Sequence record: LR746137
DNA: 64,000 bases
Reading direction: 5' to 3' (one strand)
Source of the DNA: Escherichia phage vB_EcoM_UP17
The first letter of the stretch is position 1, and every line of letters begins with the position of its first letter. Positions 44,953 through 58,517 of this stretch are shown here, piece after piece. The translations under genes and the position numbers were made by a program. The notes under the pieces are model-generated. The model worked only from the letters and a program-made list of their open reading frames with translations, had not been told where the DNA came from and searched no databases.

Positions 44953-44954
44953 GA

Positions 44955-45389: not shown

Positions 45390-45408
45390 ATTATTTGGAG
45401 TTAAAATC

Positions 45409-45606: not shown

Positions 45607-45612
45607 AAAGTA

Positions 45613-45675
45613 TTGACAACAACCAACAACCTGATAAGATGTATCACATAGGGCGGCGGAATGGTCCAGCCGCTC
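45613..45675 (+). promoter_or_regulatory. Promoter-hairpin unit
   Basis: TTGACA-16-TAAGAT, hairpin 45651-45675 with AATGGT loop. Confidence 0.5.
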
Positions 45676-45698
45676 ACAACAGAAGAGAGATTATAATC

Positions 45699-45971: not shown

Positions 45972-45974
45972 GGT

Positions 45975-46030
45975 TTGACATTAGCGAATAATTTACTAAT
46001 ATGTTGCATAAGGCGGGAATAGTTCCCGCT
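45975..46030 (+). promoter_or_regulatory. Promoter-hairpin unit
   Basis: TTGACA-16-TAATAT, hairpin GCGGGAA-TAG-TTCCCGC. Confidence 0.5.
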
Positions 46031-46047
46031 ATTTGTAAGGTGGTAGA

Positions 46048-46305
46048 ATGTTTTACATCAAATTAAAAGGTCACGTGATCGCGTTCAAAGATAACGCTTT
46101 TTACAGATTAGCAAAATATGCGTTAATACATCCCCACTATGTTTATATAAGGGGGCGTGATGAAATAAATATCTTTGATCAAACAACATGCGAGAACATC
46201 GAGATCCGCAAGGTTGGCGTACGTGATTATCGTACATCTTTCTACCCTTGCAAAGATTCCGCAAGTCTTTTTAAAGTATGCCAATTGTTGAAAAAAGGTG
46301 GTTAA
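46048..46305 (+). CDS. Early small protein
   Basis: 85 aa, SD AAGGTGG. Confidence 0.5.
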   Translation: MFYIKLKGHVIAFKDNAFYRLAKYALIHPHYVYIRGRDEINIFDQTTCENIEIRKVGVRDYRTSFYPCKDSASLFKVCQLLKKGG

Positions 46306-46306
46306 T

Positions 46307-46864
46307 ATGGGCCGCGAATATGTGATCCAGTCTTGGGTAAAACATGAAGCAGATGATCCGCGCATCATTCCCGATCATCTTATCGATGAATCCACGGGGT
46401 ATAGCGGTGAGCAAATAGGTAACAGATTAGCACGTAGTAACGGCAACGTAAAAGCGCGTTATTTGCGCCCTGGCTGGCTGGCAAATGGTAACGCTGATTT
46501 ATCCAGTGCGGAAGATGCGAGCGACGGCGCGAAAGATAATCCTTTGTACAAAGTTGATCCGGCTTTTCGTGTCCTGGATGAATACCCCAGCAAGATAGCG
46601 GCGCTTGATGAAGCACTGGAAAGTAAGCGCATCACCTGGACCGCTTACAACATGGCAAAAAACGTACTTGATGGTAAATTGATTCAAGCCGAAAGAAAAT
46701 TAGCCAAAATTGCAGCCATAGCCCAGGAGGAAGACGAGGAGACAACGGAAGAGGAAGAGTACGAAGAGATCCCGCCGTTGTTGTGTGTTGATGCTTTTCC
46801 TGATTATCAGCCGACAGAGGAAGAAAAAAGGATCGCACTAGAAAACTTTGAAAATAGTCTTTGA
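46307..46864 (+). CDS. Early protein with acidic C-terminal region
   Basis: ATG 46307 after AGGTGG; EDEETTEEEEYEE. Confidence 0.5.
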   Translation: MGREYVIQSWVKHEADDPRIIPDHLIDESTGYSGEQIGNRLARSNGNVKARYLRPGWLANGNADLSSAEDASDGAKDNPLYKVDPAFRVLDEYPSKIAALDEALESKRITWTAYNMAKNVLDGKLIQAERKLAKIAAIAQEEDEETTEEEEYEEIPPLLCVDAFPDYQPTEEEKRIALENFENSL

Positions 46865-46919
46865 CATATCGCCGCCACTAGCATAATATTTACCACGTAG
46901 GGCGGCAATGGTGCCGCTC
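46861..46919 (+). promoter_or_regulatory. Promoter-hairpin unit
   Basis: TTGACA overlapping upstream stop, 17 nt, TAATAT, hairpin 46900-46919. Confidence 0.5.
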
Positions 46920-46946
46920 ATAGTGAAATTATACAAGAGGCTTACA

Positions 46947-47042
46947 ATGATTAATAAAGAAAATAGCTTGACGGTTGGAACGATTAACGCTATCATTCTA
47001 GCCGTTCCATTTTGGATTGTAGTGGCGGTTATTATTTTCTAA
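46947..47042 (+). CDS. Hydrophobic micro-peptide (31 aa), not in ORF track
   Basis: ATG after AAGAGG; MINKENSLTVGTINAIILAVPFWIVVAVIIF. Confidence 0.3.
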   Translation: MINKENSLTVGTINAIILAVPFWIVVAVIIF

Positions 47043-47051
47043 AAAATATTC

Positions 47052-47112
47052 TTGACAACGTTTTTTAATCTGATAAGATGTGTCACATAGGGCGGCGGAA
47101 TACTTCCCCGCC
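47052..47112 (+). promoter_or_regulatory. Promoter-hairpin unit
   Basis: TTGACA-16-TAAGAT, imperfect hairpin 47090-47112. Confidence 0.5.
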
Positions 47113-47133
47113 AAAACAAAAAAGGGTAACACA

Positions 47134-47496
47134 ATGAGCAAGCAAATCAATACTATCATGTTTAATCTGGTATCTTTCCGCGATGATATGAAAAATTTAC
47201 CACGTGAAACGGTTGATATTCATGTTTCAGCTTATCGCGCCCTTATTGATATGTTACCGCTAAAACGTGATCAACATGCCGCTAATATGATGCTTAATGC
47301 TATGCTTAAAAAGATGATTCAAACGGATCTTACTCTGGCGTATGAGTATCAAGGGCGCTTATATGCTACTTACAACAAAGCGGTACCTGGTCTGGGAAGT
47401 ACCGAAGAGTTGCACGGCTTAAACCTGGATCAAAACAATTGGGATAGTATGCGCCGCGTTATGGTATGGGCCGAAAGCGGTAAAATTTACGAATAA
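47134..47496 (+). CDS. Early small protein
   Basis: ATG 47134 after AAGGG; track GTG start lies in hairpin. Confidence 0.5.
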   Translation: MSKQINTIMFNLVSFRDDMKNLPRETVDIHVSAYRALIDMLPLKRDQHAANMMLNAMLKKMIQTDLTLAYEYQGRLYATYNKAVPGLGSTEELHGLNLDQNNWDSMRRVMVWAESGKIYE

Positions 47497-47502
47497 AAAC
47501 GG

Positions 47503-47559
47503 TTGACACTGTTTAAAATTCTGGTATAGTTTATCACGTAGGGCGGCAATGGTGCCGCC
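47503..47559 (+). promoter_or_regulatory. Promoter-hairpin unit
   Basis: TTGACA-16-TATAGT, hairpin 47541-47559. Confidence 0.5.
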
Positions 47560-47579
47560 AACAATAAAAGGTTAACATC

Positions 47580-47759
47580 ATGGCTATCATTGCAAAAACT
47601 GAGATTATAGGTTTAGATTCGATCCTCCTGGCTTATGAGGAAACTTTAAAAATGTATGTAGTGACCTATGGTGATTATGTGCGTGAATACGAATACATTG
47701 ATCTTGCTTTCGAATGTTACATTAGCCAGGTCAATAAAGCCTATAACGATTATCGTTAA
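47580..47759 (+). CDS. Early small protein (59 aa), not in ORF track
   Basis: ATG after AAAAGG; frame anchored to flanking track genes. Confidence 0.4.
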   Translation: MAIIAKTEIIGLDSILLAYEETLKMYVVTYGDYVREYEYIDLAFECYISQVNKAYNDYR

Positions 47760-47778
47760 AAGTTTTAGTCTTATACTA

Positions 47779-47830
47779 TTGACAATGAGTGATAGTATAA
47801 GCATAATAACTTTTATCGGGAATACTTCCC
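47779..47830 (+). promoter_or_regulatory. Promoter-hairpin unit
   Basis: TTGACA-17-CATAAT, hairpin GGGAA-TAC-TTCCC. Confidence 0.5.
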
Positions 47831-47856
47831 ACTAACCAAAAAGAGAGAGTGACACC

Positions 47857-48222
47857 ATGGCTATTAATATCAATGTTTCCGCTTATGCTACCCTGGCTGA
47901 CACGGCTAAAATTGAATTATCCAGCATTGAGGCGGTGCATATTAGCGCCCGTCGCTGGTTTCAACAGTCCTACGGTAACACATATTTTTCTTTAAGCGTG
48001 GACGTTGAGATCGGCGGTAAACTGATCGAAGTGGTTAACGTGCCGTTTCAATATGGTTATGGTGATCATTTTGATACCGTCGCTATGGAAGAATTTAGCA
48101 AGGTTGTTGACCTGGAAGGCAAGGAATTTTCACGCGGCGCGTATCTTTCCCGTTTTTGCCGTGACAATGGGATCACTGTATACAGTCATGCAAGCGATGT
48201 TAAACGTAAAAAAGATTTATAA
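47857..48222 (+). CDS. Early small protein
   Basis: 121 aa, SD AGAGAGAG. Confidence 0.5.
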   Translation: MAININVSAYATLADTAKIELSSIEAVHISARRWFQQSYGNTYFSLSVDVEIGGKLIEVVNVPFQYGYGDHFDTVAMEEFSKVVDLEGKEFSRGAYLSRFCRDNGITVYSHASDVKRKKDL

Positions 48223-48228
48223 AAGTAG

Positions 48229-48287
48229 TTGACAGCACGAATAAAAAGCGTAAAATGTTTTATATCGAGAGCGGGAATAGTTCCCGC
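48229..48287 (+). promoter_or_regulatory. Promoter-hairpin unit
   Basis: TTGACA-16-TAAAAT, hairpin GCGGGAA-TAG-TTCCCGC. Confidence 0.5.
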
Positions 48288-48312
48288 CTCACTGAAAAAA
48301 GAGATTAACATC

Positions 48313-48552
48313 ATGGCTAAATCTAAAATGTATAACGGTCACAAAAACAAAACTCATTGGAATGTAAGCCTTTGGATTAATAACGATGAGTCATTATACC
48401 GCACCGCGAAAGAATTTATTAGTTATAATTCTAACCGTAATGATGCGGCGTGTGATATGATGCTATTCCTGGAACAGATTGGACAAGATAAAACACCGGA
48501 CGGATTCAAGTATAGTAAAACTGCAATCCGCGCCGCGATGGTTGGAATGTAA
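48313..48552 (+). CDS. Early small protein
   Basis: ATG 48313 after AAGAGA. Confidence 0.5.
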   Translation: MAKSKMYNGHKNKTHWNVSLWINNDESLYRTAKEFISYNSNRNDAACDMMLFLEQIGQDKTPDGFKYSKTAIRAAMVGM

Positions 48553-48561
48553 TAAAAACAG

Positions 48562-48616
48562 TTGACAACGTTTAAAATTAGTGTAAGATGTATCACATAG
48601 GGGCGACAAGCGCCCC
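48562..48616 (+). promoter_or_regulatory. Promoter-hairpin unit
   Basis: TTGACA-16-TAAGAT, hairpin GGGGCG-ACAAG-CGCCCC. Confidence 0.5.
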
Positions 48617-48638
48617 TCCTAACGAAGAGAGAAAAATC

Positions 48639-48866
48639 ATGGCTATCAATATTGTTCGCGTATCCGGCACCGTTGGCACTTCCCAGGTTATTGCAGTTGT
48701 AACAAACAAAAAGATTAATGATGTATGTGAGATCTTGAATAAGTGGGCTGTTGCTAATTTTGGGGAATATGCAAGCGTCGAGTACATCGAATCCTACCAG
48801 GTGCCAACCATCAGCCTGACCGATCTCAACGTTGATCGCCTGTTATGCCTGGATGAATTAATCTGA
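48639..48866 (+). CDS. Early small protein
   Basis: ATG 48639 after GAAGAGAGA. Confidence 0.5.
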   Translation: MAINIVRVSGTVGTSQVIAVVTNKKINDVCEILNKWAVANFGEYASVEYIESYQVPTISLTDLNVDRLLCLDELI

Positions 48867-48875
48867 AAAAGATTG

Positions 48876-48933
48876 TTGACACCGGAAAGAAAAAGAGTAA
48901 ACTGTATTACGTAGGGCGGCAATGGTGCCGCTC
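48876..48933 (+). promoter_or_regulatory. Promoter-hairpin unit
   Basis: TTGACA-16-TAAACT, hairpin GGGCGGCA-ATGG-TGCCGCTC. Confidence 0.5.
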
Positions 48934-48956
48934 ACAACAGAAGAGAGATTATCACG

Positions 48957-49169
48957 ATGGCTAATATCCGCACACTGTTAAAAAATGCAAGTCAAGTTTT
49001 ATTTTCAGATGACGAGTATTTCAATAAAGACATTACAGGCGTGAAGAATATCAAAGATGTAAAAAGTGTTATGGGTATATATTGCAATGTTAAACGTGTT
49101 GGAACGTTCGGTGATAAAGTATTGTACCAATCAGGTGATTACAATTTTACTTTGACGATTATTTCATAA
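48957..49169 (+). CDS. Early small protein
   Basis: 70 aa, SD AGAAGAGAG. Confidence 0.5.
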   Translation: MANIRTLLKNASQVLFSDDEYFNKDITGVKNIKDVKSVMGIYCNVKRVGTFGDKVLYQSGDYNFTLTIIS

Positions 49170-49174
49170 AACGC

Positions 49175-49235
49175 TTGCAATACTGCAAAATAAAGTAAAC
49201 TGTATTACATCAAGGCGGCGGAATGGTCCACCGCC
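49175..49235 (+). promoter_or_regulatory. Promoter-hairpin unit (weaker promoter)
   Basis: TTGCAA then TAAACT-like, hairpin 49212-49235 with AATGGT loop. Confidence 0.4.
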
Positions 49236-49259
49236 TAACAAAGAGAAGAGGAAAATATC

Positions 49260-49427
49260 ATGATCACTTTCGCTACCCGTGAAGCCGCTCGCAACGTTGC
49301 ACGTAAAGTTAACGCCGCCAACCTGGGCGCTACTTTTAAAGCCCCGGTGAAAGATGAATCAGGCAAATGGATCTTCCCTGGTCTGCGTCACGCTGATAAG
49401 CTAGGCACTTTAAGCCTTAAAAAATAA
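49260..49427 (+). CDS. Early small basic protein (55 aa), not in ORF track
   Basis: ATG after AGAGAAGAGG; begins MITFA like the next gene. Confidence 0.4.
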   Translation: MITFATREAARNVARKVNAANLGATFKAPVKDESGKWIFPGLRHADKLGTLSLKK

Positions 49428-49430
49428 TCG

Positions 49431-49468
49431 TTGACTTTTCGTTATAGCGCCTTATAATGGGCGCTATA
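49431..49468 (+). promoter_or_regulatory. Promoter with -10 hexamer inside a 9-bp hairpin loop
   Basis: TTGACT-16-TATAAT; TATAGCGCC and GGCGCTATA pair around loop TTATAATG. Confidence 0.45.
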
Positions 49469-49501
49469 GAGAAGAGAAACCACTACTGACAAGGAAACAC
49501 C

Positions 49502-49723
49502 ATGATCACTTTCGCTATTGTCGCCGTTGTTGCTGGTCAAGTTTACGTAAACGATACATTCACCACAGAAGACAAGGCCGCAGGAGACATAACCGCCGTT
49601 TACAATGAGTGCAAGGCAGTAGAAAGGATGTTAGCGCCTTGTATGTTAATGAGTGAACGCCAGGACGGGATAACAGTGTTTACTAACATTGAGACAGGGT
49701 ACCAAATGGTAGTAACAAAATAA
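49502..49723 (+). CDS. Early small protein
   Basis: 73 aa, N-terminus MITFA shared with 49260 ORF. Confidence 0.5.
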   Translation: MITFAIVAVVAGQVYVNDTFTTEDKAAGDITAVYNECKAVERMLAPCMLMSERQDGITVFTNIETGYQMVVTK

Positions 49724-49726
49724 AGC

Positions 49727-49784
49727 TTGACACGGATTTAATTTTCAGTAAACTGTTACACGTAGGGCGGGAATAGTTCCCGCT
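49727..49784 (+). promoter_or_regulatory. Promoter-hairpin unit
   Basis: TTGACA-16-TAAACT, hairpin GCGGGAA-TAG-TTCCCGC. Confidence 0.5.
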
Positions 49785-49801
49785 AAAAAGAGAGAAAGAC
49801 C

Positions 49802-50155
49802 ATGAAAGCACAAAATGCAATTAAAGAGTACATCCTTGCCGCTATCGATTTTAATGATTACGGTATTACAACCGAAAAAGAGAAGATCGCGGAATTGATG
49901 CGCCGTTTTAATTCCGAGTACTGGTACCCTGATAACCAATCACGTTTTAATTATAGTATTGTTAAAGCACTTGCATCATGGTTACAAGGTTTGCCATCAG
50001 ATATTAATATCGCTTTCGAATATTGGGAAATTGATCGCTTGTTAACATCCTGGGGATACATTAAAGAGAATAGCAGCGATGATAAAATCCAACGAGAAAG
50101 GGAAAATTATTGGCTTTATATTGCAGGCGTGATCCTTGCTTGCTCTTATGAATGA
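49802..50155 (+). CDS. Early small protein
   Basis: 117 aa, SD AGAGAGAAAG. Confidence 0.5.
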   Translation: MKAQNAIKEYILAAIDFNDYGITTEKEKIAELMRRFNSEYWYPDNQSRFNYSIVKALASWLQGLPSDINIAFEYWEIDRLLTSWGYIKENSSDDKIQRERENYWLYIAGVILACSYE

Positions 50156-50161
50156 TAAACC

Positions 50162-50215
50162 TTGACAATTTTACAAAACAGTTTAAATTAATAATATAGC
50201 GGCAATGGTGCCGCT
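50162..50215 (+). promoter_or_regulatory. Promoter-hairpin unit
   Basis: TTGACA-16-TAAATT, hairpin AGCGGCA-ATGG-TGCCGCT. Confidence 0.5.
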
Positions 50216-50234
50216 CATATAAAGAGGAAACAAA

Positions 50235-50381
50235 ATGAATACATCTAATCGCGCAGAAAAAATTCAATCTTCCAAGATCCGTAAGGCCTGGAATGAGGAA
50301 GTGATCCGCAAAGGCGACAAGCGCAATAAAACAAAGCGCGGGAAGAGTGACAAATATAATTGGATGGATTTAGAGGATTAA
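50235..50381 (+). CDS. Small basic protein (48 aa), not in ORF track
   Basis: ATG after AAGAGG; Lys/Arg-rich. Confidence 0.35.
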   Translation: MNTSNRAEKIQSSKIRKAWNEEVIRKGDKRNKTKRGKSDKYNWMDLED

Positions 50382-50389
50382 CATAACAA

Positions 50390-50415
50390 GGGCGCACCAA
50401 GCGCCCTTTCTTTTT
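50390..50415 (+). terminator. Rho-independent terminator
   Basis: GGGCGC-ACCAA-GCGCCC then TTTCTTTTT. Confidence 0.6.
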
Positions 50416-50436
50416 ACATGTAGAGGATAAACAAAA

Positions 50437-50622
50437 ATGATTTTAAACGAGCTTAAAACAGCCTACAGCGCAACATTAAAAATAGCCGTGCGTTACCGTG
50501 ACGAATACGGTTTTATCGCGCAGGGCGTGATCCTGGGCTTTTCTGACGATGGTTTGATCTATGTTGATGCACATCACAACAAGGTTAAACCTGAAAACGT
50601 CATTAGCATAAAATATCTTTAA
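50437..50622 (+). CDS. Early small protein
   Basis: 61 aa, SD GAGGATAA. Confidence 0.45.
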   Translation: MILNELKTAYSATLKIAVRYRDEYGFIAQGVILGFSDDGLIYVDAHHNKVKPENVISIKYL

Positions 50623-50628
50623 AAGTGG

Positions 50629-50688
50629 TTGACACCATAACCGGACCTGTTAAACTGTATTACATCAGGCGGGGAATAGTTCCCCACC
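50629..50688 (+). promoter_or_regulatory. Promoter-hairpin unit
   Basis: TTGACA-16-TAAACT, hairpin GGGGAA-TAG-TTCCCC. Confidence 0.5.
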
Positions 50689-50707
50689 ATACAAAAAGGT
50701 AAATATT

Positions 50708-50914
50708 ATGATCACCGCAAAACAAGAAAAAATCATTATCGACGTTGCAGCCGTTGCCGCTATTGCTATTATTGGATCTTATTATGATACCCGTTTCCCG
50801 TCGGCTATGCATGAGGTCGCCGCCGTTGCATCAGTTGGCGTGCTGTTTTACGTTGGTAAACGCTATTTATCACCAATGATTAACAAGCTGACACCGTGGA
50901 AAAATAAAGGTTGA
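50708..50914 (+). CDS. Early small membrane protein
   Basis: 68 aa, hydrophobic core. Confidence 0.5.
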   Translation: MITAKQEKIIIDVAAVAAIAIIGSYYDTRFPSAMHEVAAVASVGVLFYVGKRYLSPMINKLTPWKNKG

Positions 50915-50965
50915 TCCTGTTTTACATTGTGTTATAGTTATCGTGTAGGGCGGCAATGGTGCCGC
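50911..50965 (+). promoter_or_regulatory. Promoter-hairpin unit
   Basis: TTGATC-16-TATAGT, hairpin GGCGGCA-ATGG-TGCCGC. Confidence 0.45.
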
Positions 50966-50985
50966 GCCCCTTTGAGGATGCAATC

Positions 50986-51270
50986 ATGAGTAAAGCTAAC
51001 ACCGTGCTAATGTTTTCCCTGGTTAATGATCCCGCTTACTTGTCCAACATGACGCAGGAGGGTGACACATTAACGGCAACATTCACCAATAAGCTTGACC
51101 GAGTGATCATCATCTCACTGAAAACAGTTAGTAAAGGCTTTTACTCGTTAGCTTATCATTGGATCACCGATACCGATGAGACAAGCCAGGACTATAGCGC
51201 CCCTTTCCCTGAATCAATGGCACGGGAGATCATCGCCGCCGTTGTAAATGATGGTTTGTTTACTGCATAA
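50986..51270 (+). CDS. Early small protein
   Basis: ATG 50986 after GAGGATG. Confidence 0.5.
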   Translation: MSKANTVLMFSLVNDPAYLSNMTQEGDTLTATFTNKLDRVIIISLKTVSKGFYSLAYHWITDTDETSQDYSAPFPESMAREIIAAVVNDGLFTA

Positions 51271-51288
51271 AATAATTCAGAAAAAGGC

Positions 51289-51345
51289 TTGCAATCATTT
51301 TGGGATAATGTATATTTAATGCATAGGGCGGCGGGAATAGTTCCC
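51289..51345 (+). promoter_or_regulatory. Promoter-hairpin unit
   Basis: TTGCAA-17-TATATT, hairpin GGGAA-TAG-TTCCC. Confidence 0.45.
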
Positions 51346-51368
51346 AAAGCAAACGAGAGGATTACACG

Positions 51369-51488
51369 ATGAGCAAGTACACAGTAGAATACACGGTAGA
51401 AAATCCGGCAGTATCCGAAGGTAAAAAGATGACATTTGCCATCAGTATAATCGCTTTCGTTGTCACTATCTTATCAATCATCTTATAA
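51369..51488 (+). CDS. Hydrophobic micro-peptide (39 aa), not in ORF track
   Basis: ATG after GAGAGG; C-terminal TM segment. Confidence 0.3.
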   Translation: MSKYTVEYTVENPAVSEGKKMTFAISIIAFVVTILSIIL

Positions 51489-51498
51489 GGTGCACACC

Positions 51499-51678
51499 AT
51501 GAAAACATCAGACGTTATCAAATCATCCAAGATTATTAAAGAGATCGCCCTTGCCACTGGCATTGAGATCGAGGAAGTGATCGCGCTCAATCTTACAGAA
51601 GACAACTTGCGCAGCTATGAAACGGAAAGCGTGAAAGCAAGTGGCGCGATCCTGGCATATAATCCGGCTAACAAATAA
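51499..51678 (+). CDS. Early small protein
   Basis: ATG 51499, 10 nt after previous stop. Confidence 0.45.
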   Translation: MKTSDVIKSSKIIKEIALATGIEIEEVIALNLTEDNLRSYETESVKASGAILAYNPANK

Positions 51679-51679
51679 C

Positions 51680-51734
51680 TTGACAAGCTGAATCAACCTG
51701 ATAAGATGTATCACATAGGGGCGACAAGCGCCCC
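51680..51734 (+). promoter_or_regulatory. Promoter-hairpin unit
   Basis: TTGACA-16-TAAGAT, hairpin GGGGCG-ACAAG-CGCCCC. Confidence 0.5.
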
Positions 51735-51755
51735 GCCTAACAGAGAGATAGAATC

Positions 51756-52034
51756 ATGACCATCACCAAATTATCCACCGAAGAAATCGAACAAGTGCTG
51801 ACTACTAATCTGCAAGATTGGAAGCGTGAAGCAGATTTGCAAGCGGTTTGCAAGCTGAATGCAGAATTAACGGAAAATGATATTGACACTATTGTTAGCC
51901 CCGATTTTTATGATGCTATTCATGATGATTCGATTATCCTTGAAACACTGTTAGATAACACTTGGATCAATCCTGATTTGGCAGCTTATGACCGTAGCGC
52001 CTTTATCACTATCCACAATATTTACAACCGTTAA
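51756..52034 (+). CDS. Early small acidic protein
   Basis: 92 aa, SD AGAGAGATAG. Confidence 0.5.
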   Translation: MTITKLSTEEIEQVLTTNLQDWKREADLQAVCKLNAELTENDIDTIVSPDFYDAIHDDSIILETLLDNTWINPDLAAYDRSAFITIHNIYNR

Positions 52035-52043
52035 GGGGATAAC

Positions 52044-52154
52044 ATGAATCCGAAAGACATGCAAGCCTGGAAAGGGTATGATGATCTAAGCGCCTTGCGC
52101 AATAAGTCAAGCCGTAACCTTAGACGATTGGAAGCAAAGAAAAAGAAAAAATAG
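52044..52154 (+). CDS. Small basic ORF (36 aa), not in ORF track
   Basis: ATG after AAGGGGA; Lys-rich tail. Confidence 0.3.
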   Translation: MNPKDMQAWKGYDDLSALRNKSSRNLRRLEAKKKKK

Positions 52155-52155
52155 T

Positions 52156-52213
52156 TTGACAAGTCCGCGTAGTCTGGTAATATGTATCTTGTAGGGCGGC
52201 AATGGTGCCGCTC
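52156..52213 (+). promoter_or_regulatory. Promoter-hairpin unit
   Basis: TTGACA-16-TAATAT, hairpin GGGCGGCA-ATGG-TGCCGCTC. Confidence 0.5.
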
Positions 52214-52232
52214 ACAAGAAGAGAGAAAAATC

Positions 52233-52517
52233 ATGAAAATCACAAAAAGCCTGACTAATTATGCAGCACGTCGCGGATTATGTTTAACCGTTGAAAACTT
52301 AGGGAAAGAAGACTTTTTGTGTTTTTGGGAGCTTGAGAATGATTGCGAGTGGATGTTTTCTTATTCTATCTGCGAAGATCAAAACGGTTGTTTGTTAACC
52401 TGGCGCGGTAATATCTATTTACCGGAAGAAATTAAAGAAGAGCTACCAGGTACGATCATGACAGAGAGACAGCTTAAGGAAGTGATCAATTTTGTAGGGC
52501 AAAACATTAAAAAATAA
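52233..52517 (+). CDS. Early small protein
   Basis: ATG 52233 after AAGAAGAGAGA. Confidence 0.5.
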   Translation: MKITKSLTNYAARRGLCLTVENLGKEDFLCFWELENDCEWMFSYSICEDQNGCLLTWRGNIYLPEEIKEELPGTIMTERQLKEVINFVGQNIKK

Positions 52518-52518
52518 T

Positions 52519-52581
52519 TTGACAGCAGGCAAACAACGTAGTAAAGTTTATTACATAGAGCGGCGGAATGGTCCACCGCTC
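52519..52581 (+). promoter_or_regulatory. Promoter-hairpin unit
   Basis: TTGACA-17-TAAAGT, hairpin 52558-52581 with AATGGT loop. Confidence 0.5.
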
Positions 52582-52602
52582 ACAACAGAAGAGAAACAAA
52601 TC

Positions 52603-52773
52603 ATGATCCCGACTATGTTTTATGTATCGCGCAAAGGTCACAATATTTTTTGGTCTGAAGATTTAAATGAAGCTATGACGTTTGCCCGTGATCGTGTTGC
52701 TATCGGTGGCGTTAACATCACCGTAACCGATGAAAATGGTATTGAATACTATAACGGCGACGATGAAGAATAA
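52603..52773 (+). CDS. Early small protein
   Basis: ATG 52603 after AGAAGAGAAA. Confidence 0.5.
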   Translation: MIPTMFYVSRKGHNIFWSEDLNEAMTFARDRVAIGGVNITVTDENGIEYYNGDDEE

Positions 52774-52810
52774 TTGACAACCTGAAAGCTGTATTTTTAA
52801 AATACAGCTT
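52774..52810 (+). promoter_or_regulatory. TTGACA followed by perfect 8-bp hairpin
   Basis: AAGCTGTA-TTTTTAAAA-TACAGCTT directly after a -35-like hexamer. Confidence 0.35.
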
Positions 52811-52831
52811 AGAAAATGTAGTAAATAAACC

Positions 52832-52893
52832 TTGACAATGGTTTGTTATCTGGTAAAGTGTACTACGTAGGGCGGGGCAATGGTGCAACGCCC
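52832..52893 (+). promoter_or_regulatory. Promoter-hairpin unit (variant hairpin)
   Basis: TTGACA-16-TAAAGT, hairpin GGGCGGGGCAATGGTGCAACGCCC. Confidence 0.45.
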
Positions 52894-52911
52894 ATTAATG
52901 AGGGTAGAATC

Positions 52912-53016
52912 ATGTTAGAGAAAATTTTCACGGTTGCAGTGGTTGGCCTGGCGTTATCGGTTGGAGTAGTTGCAACTATGGCTAACATGATCCTATCTTC
53001 CCACGGTATCGGTTAA
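52912..53016 (+). CDS. Hydrophobic micro-peptide (34 aa), not in ORF track
   Basis: ATG after GAGGG; single TM-like segment. Confidence 0.3.
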   Translation: MLEKIFTVAVVGLALSVGVVATMANMILSSHGIG

Positions 53017-53026
53017 GGTGAAACAA

Positions 53027-53242
53027 ATGATCACGAACAAAACAGGCAAAACGGAATTTTTACGCGGCTTACAAGTTGGTAAGCCTGAGATCTGGCATTG
53101 CACGAAGTCCGCGCATAATGAAATGAAAGATTTCACCGCTACTTTACAACGTGTTAAAATATCTATTACGCAGAAAAAAGCCTTATTAGTAGTAGAAAAC
53201 GAGATCCCGCAAACTATTATTATTGTCGAGCGTACAGCATGA
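53027..53242 (+). CDS. Early small protein
   Basis: ATG 53027 after AAGGTG. Confidence 0.45.
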   Translation: MITNKTGKTEFLRGLQVGKPEIWHCTKSAHNEMKDFTATLQRVKISITQKKALLVVENEIPQTIIIVERTA

Positions 53243-53625
53243 AAACAGAAATCATTATTGAAATCATCAACGGCTATAAAGAAGCCTTTATTTTTGCTGA
53301 ATCAGCAAGGGATCATGAAGGTAATTTTATTGATAACTTAGACGATTATGATTTTTCTCCTAGTGCGGATCAACGGATCGCCCAGGATGTAACAGTCTTT
53401 ATTAATGCTAATCTTGCCGCTATCTCTGAGGCAATGAGCGACGGCGCAACAGCCAACCAGATCGGGAATGATTTACATTTTACCCGTAACAGTCACGGCG
53501 TAGGCTTTTGGGATCGCCCTGAAATATACACCACTAACACGGCGAACCGCCTAACCAATGCAGCTAAGTTTATGCCGAACGTGTCGGCTTACATTGGTGA
53601 AGATAATTTGATTTATATTGAATAA
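53239..53625 (+). CDS. Early protein
   Basis: 128 aa, ATGA overlap with upstream gene. Confidence 0.5.
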   Translation: MKTEIIIEIINGYKEAFIFAESARDHEGNFIDNLDDYDFSPSADQRIAQDVTVFINANLAAISEAMSDGATANQIGNDLHFTRNSHGVGFWDRPEIYTTNTANRLTNAAKFMPNVSAYIGEDNLIYIE

Positions 53626-53631
53626 AAAGTA

Positions 53632-53689
53632 TTGACACAGATCGCCAGTGTGCTAATATTTACCACGTAGGGCGGCAATGGTGCCGCTC
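53632..53689 (+). promoter_or_regulatory. Promoter-hairpin unit
   Basis: TTGACA-16-TAATAT, hairpin GGGCGGCA-ATGG-TGCCGCTC. Confidence 0.5.
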
Positions 53690-53708
53690 CCCGAAAAAGG
53701 TAAACATT

Positions 53709-53900
53709 ATGAAAACCATCTCCTACCTGGAATCGAATAACATGTTTTTTGCGCCCGTTGATGAAATCATCGAAGCATTAAACAACGAGGAAGGGATCAA
53801 AGGTTTATCTTATAGCCAACTTTTAGGAATGGTTGCAGCAAATGAAGAGCTTGCTTACTATGTTGAAAATTTTGATGAAGCTGTAATCTTTACAAAATAA
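53709..53900 (+). CDS. Early small acidic protein
   Basis: 63 aa, SD AAAAAGG. Confidence 0.5.
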   Translation: MKTISYLESNNMFFAPVDEIIEALNNEEGIKGLSYSQLLGMVAANEELAYYVENFDEAVIFTK

Positions 53901-53903
53901 TCC

Positions 53904-53960
53904 TTGATCTAATCTCTTAGATAACTTATATTTAATGTGTAGGGCGGCAATGGTGCCGCC
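53904..53960 (+). promoter_or_regulatory. Promoter-hairpin unit
   Basis: TTGATC-17-TATATT, hairpin GGGCGGCA-ATGG-TGCCGCC. Confidence 0.5.
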
Positions 53961-53978
53961 GATAACGAGGAAAGTAAA

Positions 53979-54278
53979 ATGGAAACTATCGCTATTGTTA
54001 CCGTAGAAAAGCTGGTTGTTGGTGATGTATTCGCGTTAATGGTGCCTAACAGCAGCAAGCTGGGCGCTTATGAAGTAATGGATCATAAAAATGAATCATT
54101 TGGCGACGGTTGCACAATGGCGGTAAAATCTTTAAAGGATGGAATCATCCGCCAGGCTAACTGGCACAAAGGGAATCAAGTCGGTTTAATATCAGCTAAT
54201 TTCTTGCCAGAAGAGCAAACGTTAGACCAACTATCAGGCGGTAAGACGTTAGCCGAACTACTGGAAACAGCGATCTAA
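53979..54278 (+). CDS. Early small protein
   Basis: 99 aa, SD GAGGAAAG. Confidence 0.5.
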   Translation: METIAIVTVEKLVVGDVFALMVPNSSKLGAYEVMDHKNESFGDGCTMAVKSLKDGIIRQANWHKGNQVGLISANFLPEEQTLDQLSGGKTLAELLETAI

Positions 54279-54286
54279 TCAACAAA

Positions 54287-54302
54287 GGGGCGGCAACGCC
54301 CC
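54287..54302 (+). promoter_or_regulatory. Leader hairpin with GCAA tetraloop, no obvious promoter
   Basis: GGGGCG-GCAA-CGCCCC, 20 nt before ATG 54323. Confidence 0.4.
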
Positions 54303-54322
54303 ACATCAGAAAGGAAAAGATT

Positions 54323-54559
54323 ATGAGTATTGCAACAGTATTAACCGCCGTTAAAACCGCTGAATCATCCGGCTTGCATGTTGAGCTTATAGATCAACCA
54401 GGTGGCGATCTCCTTGTCCAGGTTTACCCGCCGAAAGTAGGGGATGATCATTATTGGTGTTATTCTGATACGTTCGAACAAGTAGACACGAAAGCGATCA
54501 CAACCTTTATTTTAAAAGCCGTTGAAGAAAATAACTTTCATTATAACATCAATCAATAA
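54323..54559 (+). CDS. Early small protein
   Basis: 78 aa, SD AAAGGAAAAG. Confidence 0.5.
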   Translation: MSIATVLTAVKTAESSGLHVELIDQPGGDLLVQVYPPKVGDDHYWCYSDTFEQVDTKAITTFILKAVEENNFHYNINQ

Positions 54560-54569
54560 ACCATAAGCA

Positions 54570-54584
54570 GGGCGGTAACGCCCC
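54570..54584 (+). promoter_or_regulatory. Leader hairpin with GTAA tetraloop
   Basis: GGGCG-GTAA-CGCCC upstream of ATG 54614. Confidence 0.4.
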
Positions 54585-54613
54585 ATTAAACGCAATAGGA
54601 AGAGGATAGACGT

Positions 54614-54898
54614 ATGAAAAAGATGATCGCAGTAGTTGCCCTGGTTGTTGGTATTAACGCGCCTACACTGGCTAATGAGTTGCCAGAATCCATCACGCTA
54701 ACCGACATCAACGCAGTGAATCGGATCGGTGTTAATTATCGCCTATGCCTTGCCGCTAAAACTTTCCAGGACGGCACGACAGAGTACTACGGATTCGAGG
54801 GTATCCGCTGCGGTGAGCTTGCACGCGACCTTAAGGAAGATCCAGACCTTGAGGCCATACCGATGACCGTAAACGGTAAAGCCCACGTAAACCGCTAA
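54614..54898 (+). CDS. Secreted small protein
   Basis: Signal peptide MKKMIAVVALVVGINAPTLA. Confidence 0.5.
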   Translation: MKKMIAVVALVVGINAPTLANELPESITLTDINAVNRIGVNYRLCLAAKTFQDGTTEYYGFEGIRCGELARDLKEDPDLEAIPMTVNGKAHVNR

Positions 54899-54900
54899 CC

Positions 54901-55035
54901 ATGAGAAAGGTAATCATCACAATGGGGATCGTAGTAGCAACGCTGGCGCTTATCCCTTTCATGGTTGAACATGTGCTGATCAGTGTTGTCCTTATAGTCA
55001 GTGACCTATTGGAAACGGTTGGCACCTGGTTTTAA
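54901..55035 (+). CDS. Hydrophobic micro-peptide (44 aa, or 37 aa from internal ATG 54922), not in ORF track
   Basis: Two hydrophobic segments; weak SD; terminator follows. Confidence 0.3.
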   Translation: MRKVIITMGIVVATLALIPFMVEHVLISVVLIVSDLLETVGTWF

Positions 55036-55043
55036 GATAATAA

Positions 55044-55070
55044 ATAGGGCTTGCAATAGTCCTATTTTTT
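55044..55070 (+). terminator. Rho-independent terminator
   Basis: ATAGGGC...GTCCTAT stem then TTTTTT. Confidence 0.5.
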
Positions 55071-55209
55071 GTTATACTTGTTGAACGGGCGGCACCTGGG
55101 AGCAGGGGAAGATAATCACCGGAAGACTCCGCTATATATTGATAACTAACGCCTATCAAACAACAAAACATCAAAGGAACAAACTATCAAATCTTTACAA
55201 TTCCACCTA

Positions 55210-55270
55210 TTGACACCGGATCACGCTTACACTATTATTTATCACGTAGGGCGAGCAATACAGCAAGCCC
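55210..55270 (+). promoter_or_regulatory. Promoter with degenerate hairpin
   Basis: TTGACA-17-TATTAT; GGGC...GCCC short stem at 55249-55270. Confidence 0.45.
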
Positions 55271-55287
55271 ACAAAGAGGAAAATAAA

Positions 55288-55656
55288 ATGAGCAAATCAG
55301 CAATTAAAGCACTTGAAAAAGCACAAAAAGTGATCGCCACTTCCACCACTGGCACAAGTATTAATCTGGTCGCTTACTTGGAAGATGAAACTATCCGTAA
55401 AAATTGGCGTAATGCTGATTTACTGGCTTGCTTATTGATTAATAGTGTCGCTAATGCTTTCCAGTGTGAAACAGCCGAGAGCCTAGAGGAAAACTTGTTT
55501 GATAATATGGATCAAGCCATTGAAACCTATATACAATCAAACCTGGATAACTGGAACAGTAAAACATGGCCCGACAATTTACGCGATACAACTGATCAAC
55601 TGATCCGCCTTGCCCTGATGGTTGAACGCGATAACATTCACAACCGCACAAAGTAA
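55288..55656 (+). CDS. Early protein
   Basis: ATG 55288 after AAGAGGAAAA. Confidence 0.5.
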   Translation: MSKSAIKALEKAQKVIATSTTGTSINLVAYLEDETIRKNWRNADLLACLLINSVANAFQCETAESLEENLFDNMDQAIETYIQSNLDNWNSKTWPDNLRDTTDQLIRLALMVERDNIHNRTK

Positions 55657-55713
55657 GATTATACAAGGGCGCACTAAGCGCCCTTTAACGTAAAGAAATG
55701 TAAATAATGCGCT

Positions 55714-55750
55714 ATCCCCTATTGACAGGGGATCGGCGTTATATTATATT
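55714..55750 (+). promoter_or_regulatory. Promoter whose -35 sits in the loop of a 7-bp inverted repeat
   Basis: ATCCCCT-ATTGAC-AGGGGAT; TTGACA 55722-55727, TATAT-rich -10 about 17 nt on. Confidence 0.4.
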
Positions 55751-55795
55751 TAACTCACTGGCAGCAAACAACGAAACGAAACAAAGGACAACACC

Positions 55796-56215
55796 ATGAA
55801 CATTAAATCAAATAATCCAGCTTACTCCTTCGACAACGCTTTTTGTCACGGTAGCGCCGCTAAAGGATTCGAAATCGATGGTAAATTGGTTATCGTGAAC
55901 GTTGACGGGGAAGAGGTTGCAGTATATCCGGTAAACGATGTTAAAAGCCGTTTACAATGCCGCATGGATGTTACCGCATATCAGCTTGATCCGATCCGTG
56001 TAGTTGCCCTGGTATTAGAGGAAGAGATCAAAGCAATGCATCACAGCAATAAGTTTATTGGTGACGCGCAGGATAATATGAACGTTTGCCGCCATAAAGT
56101 TAATGAAGCCTTGAAAGAGTATGGTTTTAAGGATCTGATGATTAAACGTGATGAAAAATTCCGCTTTCGTAATGACCTGGCAAACCGGATCTACTCAATC
56201 TATGAAGCGTTATAA
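55796..56215 (+). CDS. Early protein
   Basis: 139 aa, SD AAAGGACAA. Confidence 0.5.
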   Translation: MNIKSNNPAYSFDNAFCHGSAAKGFEIDGKLVIVNVDGEEVAVYPVNDVKSRLQCRMDVTAYQLDPIRVVALVLEEEIKAMHHSNKFIGDAQDNMNVCRHKVNEALKEYGFKDLMIKRDEKFRFRNDLANRIYSIYEAL

Positions 56216-56230
56216 TTGACAACAAAACAA

Positions 56231-56257
56231 GGGGCGCACCAAGCGCCCTTTCTTTTT
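56231..56257 (+). terminator. Rho-independent terminator closing the early array
   Basis: GGGGCGC-ACCAA-GCGCCC then TTTCTTTTT. Confidence 0.6.
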
Positions 56258-57028
56258 GCCCGAACAATGTTGATAGCTTTCGCCTATGAAAAACCGACAC
56301 AGAACAAAATTGAATAAATCGCGGTATCGAGCTAATCAACCATTAAACGAATAACCATACCTCCCAGGGTAACAGGCTGTTAGAGAGCCATTTAAAGCGG
56401 TTAAAATCGATCAACAACCAACAACAAACCATCAAAAACACCCTTTTACCTCCTTTCTAGTGCAATGATAACCATTATCATCTATCCATGTTTATCTATG
56501 CAATATAAGTGCATAACTATAATGTTGATAATAGTTCGCAACAACTAACTAACCAACAACCTAAAACAATAAGCAAACTAATCATAATCAAAGGAATAAT
56601 AGCAAGATGATTGATAACGACAAACAATCAAACCATGATGAATACTAAGCAAGATAACGATAACACGACAAAACAACCAACTAACGAACAATAACAAACG
56701 AAACCATTAAAATAACAACTATTAGCAAAATAGTGCCTGAATGAAATCATTACAAAACGAATCATTCACAGAGTCATCATTAGCACGCTATGCCGGACAC
56801 ATAGCGAGCTAATAATAAGCCAACTACACCCCAACAATCATAACCATCGGTGATGGTTATTTCTTGTTACTGCGTAGCTTGCAATAATTGCAAGCGTAAT
56901 TACGCTTACACTTATTGCGCTGGCTTATTATTAGCATTATATGTAATTACTGAGATCATAACATTAGCGCAATAACAATAATCATTGTGGTAATTACGTA
57001 AGGAAACAATTAGCATGGCAATAATTAT

Positions 57029-57176
57029 GGGGGCAATGGGAGGATGATTATCATCATTCCGATACATTGCACACTATGCACATAATGAGATAAAAAGCAA
57101 TACTTTTGGGGGCGAAATGTTACCGCCACAGGCGGGAATGTTGAGCACTAAGAAAAGAGCAAATATTACGGGGGCG
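57029..57176. repeat. Three iteron-like GGGGGC(G/A)A direct repeats
   Basis: GGGGGCA at 57029, GGGGGCG at 57108 and 57170, each in TNNGGGGGCNAAT context. Confidence 0.45.
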
Positions 57177-57275
57177 AATACTATCGCTACGCGATATGTT
57201 AAGCACCTTCTCTTAAACGTAAATAAAATCAGAAAATTCTTGATTTATTTTGGCTTTTATGTTAATAAACGTTTA

Positions 57276-57296
57276 AATAATAATCATTCTCATATA
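57276..57296. promoter_or_regulatory. Fur-box-like motif 3
   Basis: AATAATAATCATTCTCATATA; ATAATCATTCTCAT identical to motif 2. Confidence 0.35.
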
Positions 57297-57453
57297 AATA
57301 ATAGTCTGCTTGTCATGAGCGGGATCAGTTGACAGTGTTCCGTCATATGATGAAGTTGCCAACCCCTTGATAAATAAGTGTTTGTGTGATTTATAATCAA
57401 GTGGCCCACCTTGTCGCTACGTTGGCATGAAGCTTGCATAAGTCATTGAATAC

Positions 57454-57478
57454 GAATGATAATTATTCTCATTCGCAT
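57454..57478. promoter_or_regulatory. Fur-box-like motif 4
   Basis: GAATGATAATTATTCTCATTCGCAT. Confidence 0.35.
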
Positions 57479-57589
57479 GATATTTGGGAATTGTCGCTGC
57501 GTGGACCTGACGGCCCGAAAATTCGCGTTAAGCACTTCTTACGTATACGCCATGATTATTGCCATATCATATTGATTCTATTAGATATT

Positions 57590-57787
57590 CTTGCCATGAT
57601 TGCCATGAAACAGGGTGTGTCGAAATAATCTCTCCCCGTAGATATTTTGGGTTACTTTTTATACAAGAGTAGGGTGTCAAAAATAATCGGTATATATGGG
57701 ATAATTGATAGGAATCCCCTATGATAATTCGATTGTAATTCCCTAAGATTGATCGTATGATGTTGGTGATTGATGATTGCCATGAAA
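57590..57787. repeat. TTGCCATGA-type short repeats
   Basis: CTTGCCATG/ATTGCCATGAAA tandem at 57590-57610, GATTGCCATGAAA again at 57775-57787. Confidence 0.4.
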
Positions 57788-57814
57788 GATGGCTAACGAT
57801 GAGAGGGGATTATC

Positions 57815-58159
57815 ATGCAAGAGAGTAAAAATGTTCCGTTGAGTAGTTTACGTCTAATGAAGTTTTACAAAGCTTGGCTTGCTGGTGAGGTAGAAGGTCA
57901 CACAACGAGTGGTTTGTGCATATGTTTGATTAAGTATGTAGAGGGAACATATCCTGATGAACTGTTACCTCGTCTACAACAGGAGATGAGATCACAATTT
58001 ATTAGTGCAGGGTTGGATTACAATTTCCCGTTTAATGAGGGTGGCTATGAGGAATACACGTTTGAACATAGAGCATGTATTTGCCATAAAAACAAACATC
58101 GTATACAATGGGTGCTAGATAGAATTCAAGATTACGAAGGAGAGAAAAATGACAAATAA
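57815..58159 (+). CDS. Small protein, paralog family A (copy 1)
   Basis: Shared FYKAW...TTSGLCxCL...AGLDYNxPFN...RxQWVxDRI. Confidence 0.5.
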   Translation: MQESKNVPLSSLRLMKFYKAWLAGEVEGHTTSGLCICLIKYVEGTYPDELLPRLQQEMRSQFISAGLDYNFPFNEGGYEEYTFEHRACICHKNKHRIQWVLDRIQDYEGEKNDK

Positions 58160-58517
58160 TATTCCGTTGAGCAGTGCAGAATTGCTTCGCTTCTATAAAG
58201 CATGGATTGCCAACTATCCTGCAATGAATCGCACAACGAGTGGCTTATGTGGTTGTCTGGTAGATTATGTAGATGATTTTGTTGGTGAGACAACTAGAGA
58301 AGAAGATAGAAGATGGCGGGATAGTTTGTTGGACCGCTTGAAATATGAAATGAGGAAACAATTTACATGTGCAGGGCTGGACTACAATCTTCCGTTCAAT
58401 GCAGATTGCATGGATTACCTTTCAGAGTGTATAAACTTGGCGTGTCATACCAACACGTTACGTCTTCAATGGGTAAAAGACAGAATTGAAGATGCAAATA
58501 ATGCTTGCATTGAATAA
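58149..58517 (+). CDS. Small protein, paralog family A (copy 2)
   Basis: Same conserved blocks as 57815 ORF. Confidence 0.5.
   Translation: MTNNIPLSSAELLRFYKAWIANYPAMNRTTSGLCGCLVDYVDDFVGETTREEDRRWRDSLLDRLKYEMRKQFTCAGLDYNLPFNADCMDYLSECINLACHTNTLRLQWVKDRIEDANNACIE

Follow-up and report, generated by a model that had tools for sequence, protein, structure and literature searches.

What a phage genome keeps in a long stretch with many repeats and no gene is the question raised by positions 56258–57814 of the DNA analysed here, a stretch of 64,000 nucleotides from Escherichia phage vB_EcoM_UP17 (sequence record LR746137; below, the window). An earlier note on this DNA had offered a replication origin, a packaging site or a DNA-injection pause signal for the region, and had added that a CA-rich tract in it might be transcribed as an unstructured RNA. 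Our analysis indicates that the region very probably represents the genome-end, concatemer-junction and packaging region of the T7/phi92 type, since a 329-bp direct terminal repeat (DTR) and the motif shared by both of its edges map inside it. The packaging-site alternative is therefore the one that applies, because the physical genome ends map within the region.

Judged by its sequence matches, the window comes from a phAPEC8-like myovirus of ~150 kb (Phapecoctavirus, subfamily Stephanstirmvirinae). A total of 73 phage records match positions 56200–57850, most of them with 95–98% identity, and nearly all are phAPEC8-like (Phapecoctavirus). The earlier finding of no credible open reading frame (ORF) at 56258–57814 was confirmed: the only ORFs are 41–71 amino acids long and unconserved, and a PHROG search with them returned no family match. 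They carry stops or frameshifts in close relatives and are gone in phiWec179 and in other genera, and in comparison with the relatives their amino-acid identity is lower than the nucleotide identity. The curated annotations of phAPEC8, ESCO13 and Schickermooser leave the homologous stretch gene-free, and small minus-strand ORFs were called across it in one automatically annotated relative. The view that a protein-coding gene has decayed or been frameshifted here could point to these mechanical ORFs and to nothing beyond them; with the ORFs broken or absent in relatives, no PHROG family and no annotation in curated records, it is extremely improbable, and no protein-coding gene with homologs was found to span the region. 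A search for tRNA and tmRNA genes returned none, and no Chi sites lie within the region. The stretch is non-coding, and its density of motifs is beyond chance.

The position of the genome ends follows from the records of relatives. The repeat and its two edges are located as follows (the slash in a motif marks the break).

57202–57530, no strand assigned: DTR, 329 bp, present in the window as a single collapsed copy
57198–57206, plus strand: left cut motif GTTA/AGCAC, putative cut after 57201
57527–57535, plus strand: right cut motif GTTA/AGCAC, cut after 57530, preceded by GGCCCGAAAATTCGC

Schickermooser (MK373788) begins and ends with an exact 329-bp repeat, whose left edge corresponds to window position 57202 and whose right edge corresponds to 57530; the length was given as 328 bp by Korf et al. 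(PMC6563267). When the 329-bp sequence was used as the query, 12 records (13 entries with a RefSeq duplicate) were found to start or end exactly at 57202 or 57530, namely Mt1B1_P17, BI-EHEC, WPEC1, WPEC2, WPEC4, WPEC6, three O177 phages, Ro121lw, Schickermooser and KKP 3954, and seven of them hold the repeat at both ends. In phi92, a member of a sister genus (FR775895.2), a DTR of 343 bp is annotated at the homologous place (DTR-L 1–343, DTR-R 148270–148612). Furthermore, a 342-bp repeat was determined with PhageTerm for BME3 (PMC12210895), and Stephanstirmvirinae genomes are stated to end in direct terminal repeats in a 2025 paper (PMC12695924); the paper on the O177 phages is silent on termini. 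The identity of the region as a genome end is thus already known for this phage group and, because the repeat has been published and deposited, an ordinary result. The predicted repeat length in 21 homologues from at least six clades ranges from 321 to 353 bp, except for one homologue (L019) with 412 bp, for which the left-edge rule probably chose an upstream module.

Both edges of the DTR share the cut-site sequence GTTAAGCAC. The edges of phi92, which were annotated independently, read GTTG/AGCC and GTTA/AGCAC, and the break falls at the same base as in the window, so that the motif GTTR/AGCAC together with its break point is common to the window, phi92 and, by homology, 19 further homologues. 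At the right edge, GAAAAT(T)CGCGTTA/AGCA is kept in every relative in which that edge is covered (Phapecoctavirus, Justusliebigvirus, Citrobacter phage Tr1, the Klebsiella phages FKP3/KP13-26 and metagenomic relatives), with one-base variants in two metagenomic contigs, L021 and L025. GTTRAGCAC occurs five times in the 64 kb compared with 0.84 expected, and three of the five copies are in the region.

At the left edge the cut motif belongs to a larger module, and a further conserved block follows the terminator upstream.

57092–57153, plus strand: module 1, with GGGGGCGAA (57108), hairpin CCGCC-ACA-GGCGG (57123–57135) and GTTGAGCAC (57140–57148)
57154–57206, plus strand: module 2 with the putative left cut, containing GGGGGCGAA (57170), hairpin ATCGC-TAC-GCGAT (57183–57195) and GTTA/AGCAC
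56311–56337, no strand assigned: conserved block TGAATAAATCGCGGTATCGAGCTAATC, which resembles the right-edge sequence AAAATTCGCGTTAAGCAC

The general plan of a module is GGGG(G)CGAA, 4–8 nt, a hairpin with a stem of 5–9 bp and a loop of 3–4 nt, 2–4 nt and GTTG/AGC. The sequence of the hairpin differs among clades and also among the modules of one genome, while its pairing is always kept. Each genome has one to three modules in tandem (~62 nt each in the window); beside the two full modules, the window contains a degenerate copy, GGGGGCAA, at 57029, and positions 57150–57199, which make up most of the last module when its full ~62 nt are counted (57154–57215), are missing in most aligned close relatives, which accordingly have one module fewer. 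These tandem cut-motif modules also account for the three GGGGGC repeats 60–80 bp apart that had been reported earlier. The copies of GGGGGCRA at 57029, 57108 and 57170 are indeed present and belong to a 25-nt repeat family, but they are parts of modules rather than iterons. Only one further copy was found when both strands of the 64 kb were searched, and a total of four was reached by 9 of 100 shuffles, which makes the count alone weak. The block at 56311–56337 ranks second in conservation when distant relatives are compared (0.79 identity in its 25-nt bin); shared across genera and situated directly after the terminator, it may be a third terminase-related site. We found no description of the cross-genus cut motif and the hairpin-linked modules in the literature, and they appear undescribed.

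The interior of the repeat has a fixed layout as well, with matches to the binding sequences of two host proteins.

57360–57372, minus strand: IHF core consensus, CAACCCCTTGATA on the top strand and WATCAANNNNTTR on the minus strand, centre 57366.0
57278–57292, no strand assigned: Fur-like palindrome D1, TAATAATCATTCTCA
57457–57471, no strand assigned: Fur-like palindrome D2, TGATAATTATTCTCA
56466–56480, no strand assigned: Fur-like palindrome S1, TGATAACCATTATCA, in the spacer left of the DTR

The centre of the IHF core is the exact midpoint of 57202–57530, and the whole window contains only four matches to the IHF consensus. The core was found in 20 of the 21 homologues, at –171 to –175 from the right cut in 19 of them and at –152 in Tr1, and is lacking in one (L020). 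Its four unspecified bases vary (CCCC, ACCA, GTAG, GCCA, CCGA and others) while the specified bases stay the same, and for this reason the putative site looks used.

For Fur, the Escherichia coli operator consensus was applied in its 19-bp form, GATAATGATAATCATTATC, and as the 7-1-7 core, TGATAATNATTATCA. Matches of at least 14 of 19 positions to GATAATGATAATCATTATC number 29 in the window; 10 of these lie in the region, which makes up 2.4% of it, compared with 0.3 in the shuffled region. The core with at most two mismatches occurs six times in the 64 kb, three times in the region (one mismatch at 56466, two at 57278 and one at 57457), twice at 44.6 kb and once elsewhere. The two Fur-box-like motifs noticed earlier are therefore present, in greater number than had been stated. 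In most of the 21 homologues a box equivalent to D1 is situated at approximately –240 to –277 from the right cut and one equivalent to D2 at approximately –70; the D1 equivalent of phi92-like phages is a perfect TGATAATCATTATCA. A box equivalent to S1 is present in Phapecoctavirus, in Justusliebigvirus (two copies) and in FKP3/KP13-26.

The surroundings of D2 read ACGAAT, GATAATTATTCTCATTC (17–18 nt) and (G)CATGAT. This is the layout of the Fur-box promoter at 44.6 kb, a sigma70-like promoter that has the box as its spacer, in many V5-like phages as well (TTGAAT, GATAATCATTCTCATTT, (G)CAGAAT). Since the layout equals that of this conserved promoter, D2 may be the operator in a weak promoter that reads rightward into the first genes, with a predicted start near 57490. 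Arrays of the same Fur-like motifs, consisting of AATGATAATGATTCGCATT and repeated AATGATTCTCATTT, were also observed in the T5-like siphovirus VAH1 (L030, MK373792.1; ~1170–1330) and in Pectobacterium phage phiTE (L031; 1201–1280). Lytic enterobacterial phages that are unrelated to each other thus have the motif in common. Because a T5-like phage shares it, the ligand of the boxes would be a protein of the host, with Fur as the simplest candidate, and not one specific to a phage. A literature search on Fur boxes in lytic phages or T5 yielded nothing relevant, and we could not find a precedent for Fur-like boxes inside a phage terminal repeat.

To the left of the DTR lies a conserved element that appears to fold on the minus strand.

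56769–56939, minus strand: conserved folded element of ~170 nt, 260 bp left of the DTR
56808–56822 with 56921–56935: P1, closing helix of 15 bp
56825–56829 with 56872–56876: P2
56840–56848 with 56852–56860: H2 hairpin
56877–56884 with 56888–56895: H3, invariant palindrome
56786–56793 with 56799–56806: H1 hairpin
56881–56918: alternative long hairpin, competing with H3
56963–57014, plus strand: ATTAGC direct repeats at 56963 and 57009, with more copies at 56721, 56779 and 56930 (the last inside P1)

In an alignment of 19 distinct homologues, the 48 pairs of the six minus-strand helices show standard pairing in 100% of 912 cells, and 12 pairs contain compensatory double changes. The observed value was reached by none of 500 shuffles in any of five measures, and pairing falls to 26–54% when the partners are slid by 1–3 columns. 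G.U pairs on the minus strand, corresponding to A.C on the plus strand, occupy 53 cells; there are none with G.U on the plus strand. The minus strand also folds better in 19 of 19 homologues, by 13–24 kcal/mol with RNA parameters, and by 3–8.5 kcal/mol with DNA parameters. As pairing, G.U pattern and energies all favour it, the folding strand appears to be the minus strand, with the caveat that a top strand biased towards A+C favours A.C mismatches by itself and could mimic a strand signal. No helix outside 56786–56935 is free of incompatible pairs. The two palindromes pointed out in the earlier note, GCTTGCAATAATTGCAAGC (56877–56895) and AAGCGTAATTACGCTT (56892–56907), are perfect and overlap each other. 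Between the folded element and the DTR, relatives carry two to eight copies of ATTAGC.

A covariance model of the element scores 195 bits here, which is the sole full-length copy in the window. Rfam gave no match at the gathering score over the whole window and chance-level matches only for the region at E-values up to 10 (E at least 1.2). No homologues were found in E. coli genomes, in GTDB genomes or in the terminal region of phage LL12; metagenome matches to the palindrome alone (L023 and L026) were rejected as chance matches. Upstream of the element no minus-strand sigma70 promoter is common to different clades, and no conserved minus-strand terminator was found for it. The element may be a small RNA made from a promoter of another kind than sigma70, although we lean slightly away from this. 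Alternatively, it may act as a DNA fold, by analogy with T7, in which a minus-strand fold-back has been proposed to prime the duplication of the terminal repeat. Both this covarying element and the Fur/IHF layout of the DTR appear undescribed, as no description was found, and their functions are inferred from sequence only.

The remaining part of the left two thirds consists of a terminator and a spacer.

56229–56261, plus strand: intrinsic terminator with a 9-bp stem (6 G-C pairs) and a T-tract, closing the upstream early operon
56340–56768, plus strand: spacer, AT-rich and G-poor, with an A+C-rich top strand and no conserved ORF or secondary structure

The terminator had been recognized before as the left boundary of the region and is borne out by the stem-loop at 56229–56251 and its T-tract. 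GGGCGC-N5-GCGCCCTTT is kept in 12 of 14 aligned relatives and the minus-strand tail is variable, in line with a predicted unidirectional terminator; the hairpin at 56232–56248 was also considered as a minus-strand terminator and rejected, as its U-tract is not conserved. In the spacer, the A+C-rich top strand described earlier is clearly seen at 56400–56760 (A 0.47, C 0.21, G 0.10, T 0.22; whole window 0.31, 0.20, 0.19 and 0.30 for A, C, G and T). Depletion of G, with a C/G ratio of 1.2–2.1 over 470–650 nt, is common to 14 of 14 relatives, whereas the A-richness is specific to Phapecoctavirus and other clades are rich in A+T. The suggestion of an unstructured CA-rich RNA holds insofar as the plus strand folds poorly; however, conserved structure is confined to 56769–56939, where it has a minus-strand pattern. 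A conserved RNA structure at 56258–56780 was rejected, as the predicted helices have 5–20% incompatible pairs. Scattered ATTAGC and AATCATT repeats also occur in the spacer, and in phi92-like phages the corresponding position is occupied by four 16-nt repeats. The spacer may be an insulator that loads Rho, an unwinding region or no more than buffer DNA at the end.

The position of the repeat at 57202–57530, the shared edge motif and the same break point in two genera are direct observations, and around them a mechanism can be proposed in which the confidence of each step is much lower than that of the genome-end identity. The terminase would assemble on the left modules, with GGGGGCGAA, the short hairpin and GTTRAGCAC, and on the related right-edge sequence, and would then nick opposite strands at the two GTTR/AGC sites 329 bp apart. 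Strand-displacement synthesis could subsequently duplicate the repeat, as proposed for T7, and thereby leave a copy at each daughter end. A U-turn induced by IHF at the midpoint of the DTR may place the two cut sites next to each other, in a way comparable to the action of IHF at lambda cosB. The two flanking Fur-like palindromes would bind a host protein, most likely Fur, and at least the right one may in addition serve as the operator of a rightward promoter for the first genes. The ~170-nt element would act in single-stranded form with minus polarity, either as a small non-coding RNA or as a DNA fold for end replication or processing, and the G-poor spacer would separate the last operon from the end as a gene-free buffer.

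Several points weigh against this reading of the region. The ends of this genome were placed by homology with relatives rather than by reads, and some of the 12 records may have been re-oriented to an earlier record, so that not all of them are independent. The left cut could instead fall at 57143/57144, because the window has two full modules. In phi92-like phages the left edge has no hairpin, so the module hairpin is not essential to cutting. The binding of terminase, IHF and Fur and the nick-and-displace step are all inferred. Finally, ~950 bp of non-coding DNA left of the repeat far exceed the need of known terminase sites, and therefore part of the region must serve another purpose.

Other explanations of the region were weighed as well. 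The folded element, perhaps together with downstream GU-rich sequence, may be a minus-strand non-coding RNA gene, in which case the left two thirds would mainly serve this RNA rather than packaging. This is a serious possibility, which we hold slightly less probable than its opposite. It draws on the complete minus-strand pairing, the 12 compensatory pairs, the invariant strand pattern of the G.U cells and the better minus-strand folding in all 19 homologues; in addition, the local GC skew has the sign seen in minus-strand transcription units, and a C-poor RNA would escape Rho. However, a positionally conserved minus-strand sigma70 promoter and a conserved minus-strand terminator are both lacking, the spacer has no conserved structure, no Rfam family matches, and the apparent strand signal could stem from the A+C-rich composition of the top strand. 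The composition of the spacer may also be explained by a Rho-loading (rut-like) insulator, which would act against plus-strand read-through past 56229–56261 across the junction. Such a role appears rather doubtful: it would agree with the C/G ratio found in all 14 relatives, with a plus-strand RNA predicted to be nearly unstructured and with a location directly downstream of ~20 strong early promoters, but C reaches only ~21%, the richness is mainly in A (Phapecoctavirus) or in A+T (other clades), and a strong intrinsic terminator is already present upstream of the spacer.

A replication origin in the region or its left part, with an AT-rich unwinding stretch, initiator-bound repeats, IHF and the fold as a single-stranded DNA priming signal, is unlikely. 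The AT-rich, G-poor spacer, the direct repeats (ATTAGC, and the four 16-nt repeats of phi92-like phages), the IHF consensus and the strand-specific fold, typical of single-strand initiation signals such as those of the G4 and phiX174 type, would all be compatible with an origin, and in T7 secondary origins adjoin the genome ends. Nevertheless, we found no positive evidence for it. An iteron-type origin would have at least three evenly spaced direct repeats of ~17–22 bp beside an AT-rich unwinding element, as a rule with DnaA boxes and a neighbouring initiator gene. DnaA boxes are absent from the region and no initiator gene was identified nearby, the repeats are irregular in spacing and number and bear the cut motif, and the position of the IHF consensus midway between the cut sites fits packaging better. 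GC skew, recommended earlier as a check, proved uninformative on an origin, as no inflection was seen beyond the effect of transcription direction; that GC skew follows transcription direction was also described in the rV5 paper. A T5-type DNA-injection stop signal finds agreement in the general look of many repeats and palindromes near a genome end and in nothing else. In T5 the stop signal is part of a terminal repeat of ~10 kb, the first DNA to enter, and has the pre-early genes upstream of it. Here, the repeat is 329 bp and gene-free, the motifs are accounted for by cut sites, and nothing found in this work or in the literature suggests two-step transfer in this group, which makes such a signal highly improbable.

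The region can be compared with known systems. In phi92 and Schickermooser the order is the same, with the last early operon followed by a terminator, ~1 kb of non-coding DNA, the DTR, ~0.3 kb and the first gene (1.1 kb before and 0.35 kb after the repeat in phi92). Both share the GTTR/AGC motif, the break base, the IHF/Fur-like layout in the repeat and the folded element to its left. In contrast to the window, phi92 has a repeat of 343 bp, a left edge without the GGGGGCGAA-hairpin module, four 16-nt spacer repeats and a folded element enlarged by a 21-nt hairpin insertion. The concatemer junction of T7 and T3 contains a terminal repeat of 160–230 bp with flanking arrays of short repeats, and a hairpin-primed duplication model has been put forward for it. 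The likeness is one of organization and consists in the short non-permuted terminal repeat, the adjacent short-repeat arrays, the need to duplicate the repeat during packaging and, at the right genome end, a palindrome on the left side of the repeat. Unlike T7 and T3, the region has no phage RNA polymerase promoter or pause site, contains IHF/Fur-like sites inside the repeat and has a much longer non-coding flank.

In lambda, cos is organized as cosQ-cosN-cosB with the IHF site I1, and one nicking site gives 12-nt cohesive ends. An IHF site in the terminase recognition region and repeated terminase-binding elements beside the cut have putative counterparts here, whereas the two copies of the cut motif are 329 bp apart and lead to a terminal repeat. 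A lambda-type cos, with a single nick and short cohesive ends, was ruled out, since the ends bear a 329-bp duplex repeat. The V5-like phage LL12, from a sister subfamily, resembles the window in having a short non-permuted repeat within an unusually long gene-free stretch; its termini were determined with PhageTerm, giving a terminal redundancy of 459 bp within a 2.5-kb non-coding region (PMC6658697). In its gene-free region (L029, MH491969.1; 1499–4017) and flanks, no GTTRAGC motif, no covariance-model match to the folded element and no comparable Fur-like cluster were found, apart from a single match with two mismatches outside the repeat. This suggests that the long non-coding terminus is common to the sister subfamily and that its content is not. 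The Fur-like boxes resemble E. coli Fur operators in having 0–2 mismatches to the 7-1-7 core and conserved positions, but are predicted from sequence and located inside a phage terminal repeat.

To the right of the DTR, a short leader precedes the first gene.

57531–57814, plus strand: leader from the DTR to the first gene, with three copies of TTGCCATGA and a 24-bp tandem repeat (57700–57749)
57600–57629, plus strand: sigma70-like site in the leader, TTGCCA-18-AATAAT

The TTGCCATGA repeats listed earlier were recovered at 57591, 57600 and 57777; the window has six compared with 0.84 expected, a number reached by none of 100 shuffles. The leader is conserved within the genus only and probably carries regulation of the first genes. 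Its part at 57652–57783 is 92% identical over 39 codons (tblastn) to Justusliebigvirus muut (L006), while the flanks show ~50–70%, which suggests that genera recently exchanged DNA at the left genome end. The next gene is an ATG-initiated ORF at 57815–58159, homologous to phAPEC8_0018. Together with the following one (58149–58517) it forms a pair of tandem paralogues, the first two genes right of the DTR, both of which start ...(V/I)PLSS...(F)YKAW(L/I)A...TTSGLC.CL.

Elsewhere in the window, positions 44146–45330 form a second large gene-free region, with an AT-rich repeat part followed by a GC-rich part of ~250 nt. It contains near-consensus Fur 7-1-7 boxes at 44619 and 44677, the second being the spacer of the conserved sigma70-like promoter, and is matched by 395 phage records and by no Rfam family. 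Further genera of the V5/phi92 supergroup (Justusliebigvirus, Avunavirus, Certrevirus, Mydovirus, Seunavirus and Henunavirus) share its core (~44615–44965) at ~70–86% identity. The region is a candidate for a Fur-controlled conserved non-coding RNA. On the plus strand of 45330–55800, ~20 strong sigma70 promoters (TTGACA, 16–17 nt, TAAnnT) were counted in 10 kb. Downstream of eight of them the hairpin GTAGGGCGGCAATGGTGCCGC recurs in exact copies; it is called a 'PHIRE promoter' in the phAPEC8 record but looks like a 5' stem-loop of early transcripts.

For the phage group, the location of the terminal repeat tells annotators where the genome should start and explains the arbitrary opening points in assemblies of widely used therapeutic coliphages, and the conserved cut motif supplies a simple sequence rule for placing the ends of any Stephanstirmvirinae genome without reads. 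Beyond this, it is conceivable, though we consider it rather improbable, that the element next to the repeat represents a new class of phage structured RNA or a functional single-stranded DNA fold for genome-end replication or processing, and the DTR an IHF/Fur nucleoprotein switch that senses host iron in packaging or in expression of the first genes; on the replicating genome, the boxes could then also titrate Fur. If confirmed, a covarying single-strand fold beside the repeat and host IHF and Fur-like sites at fixed positions in the DTR would be new for large lytic myoviruses, and would tie DNA packaging or early expression to the physiology of the host.

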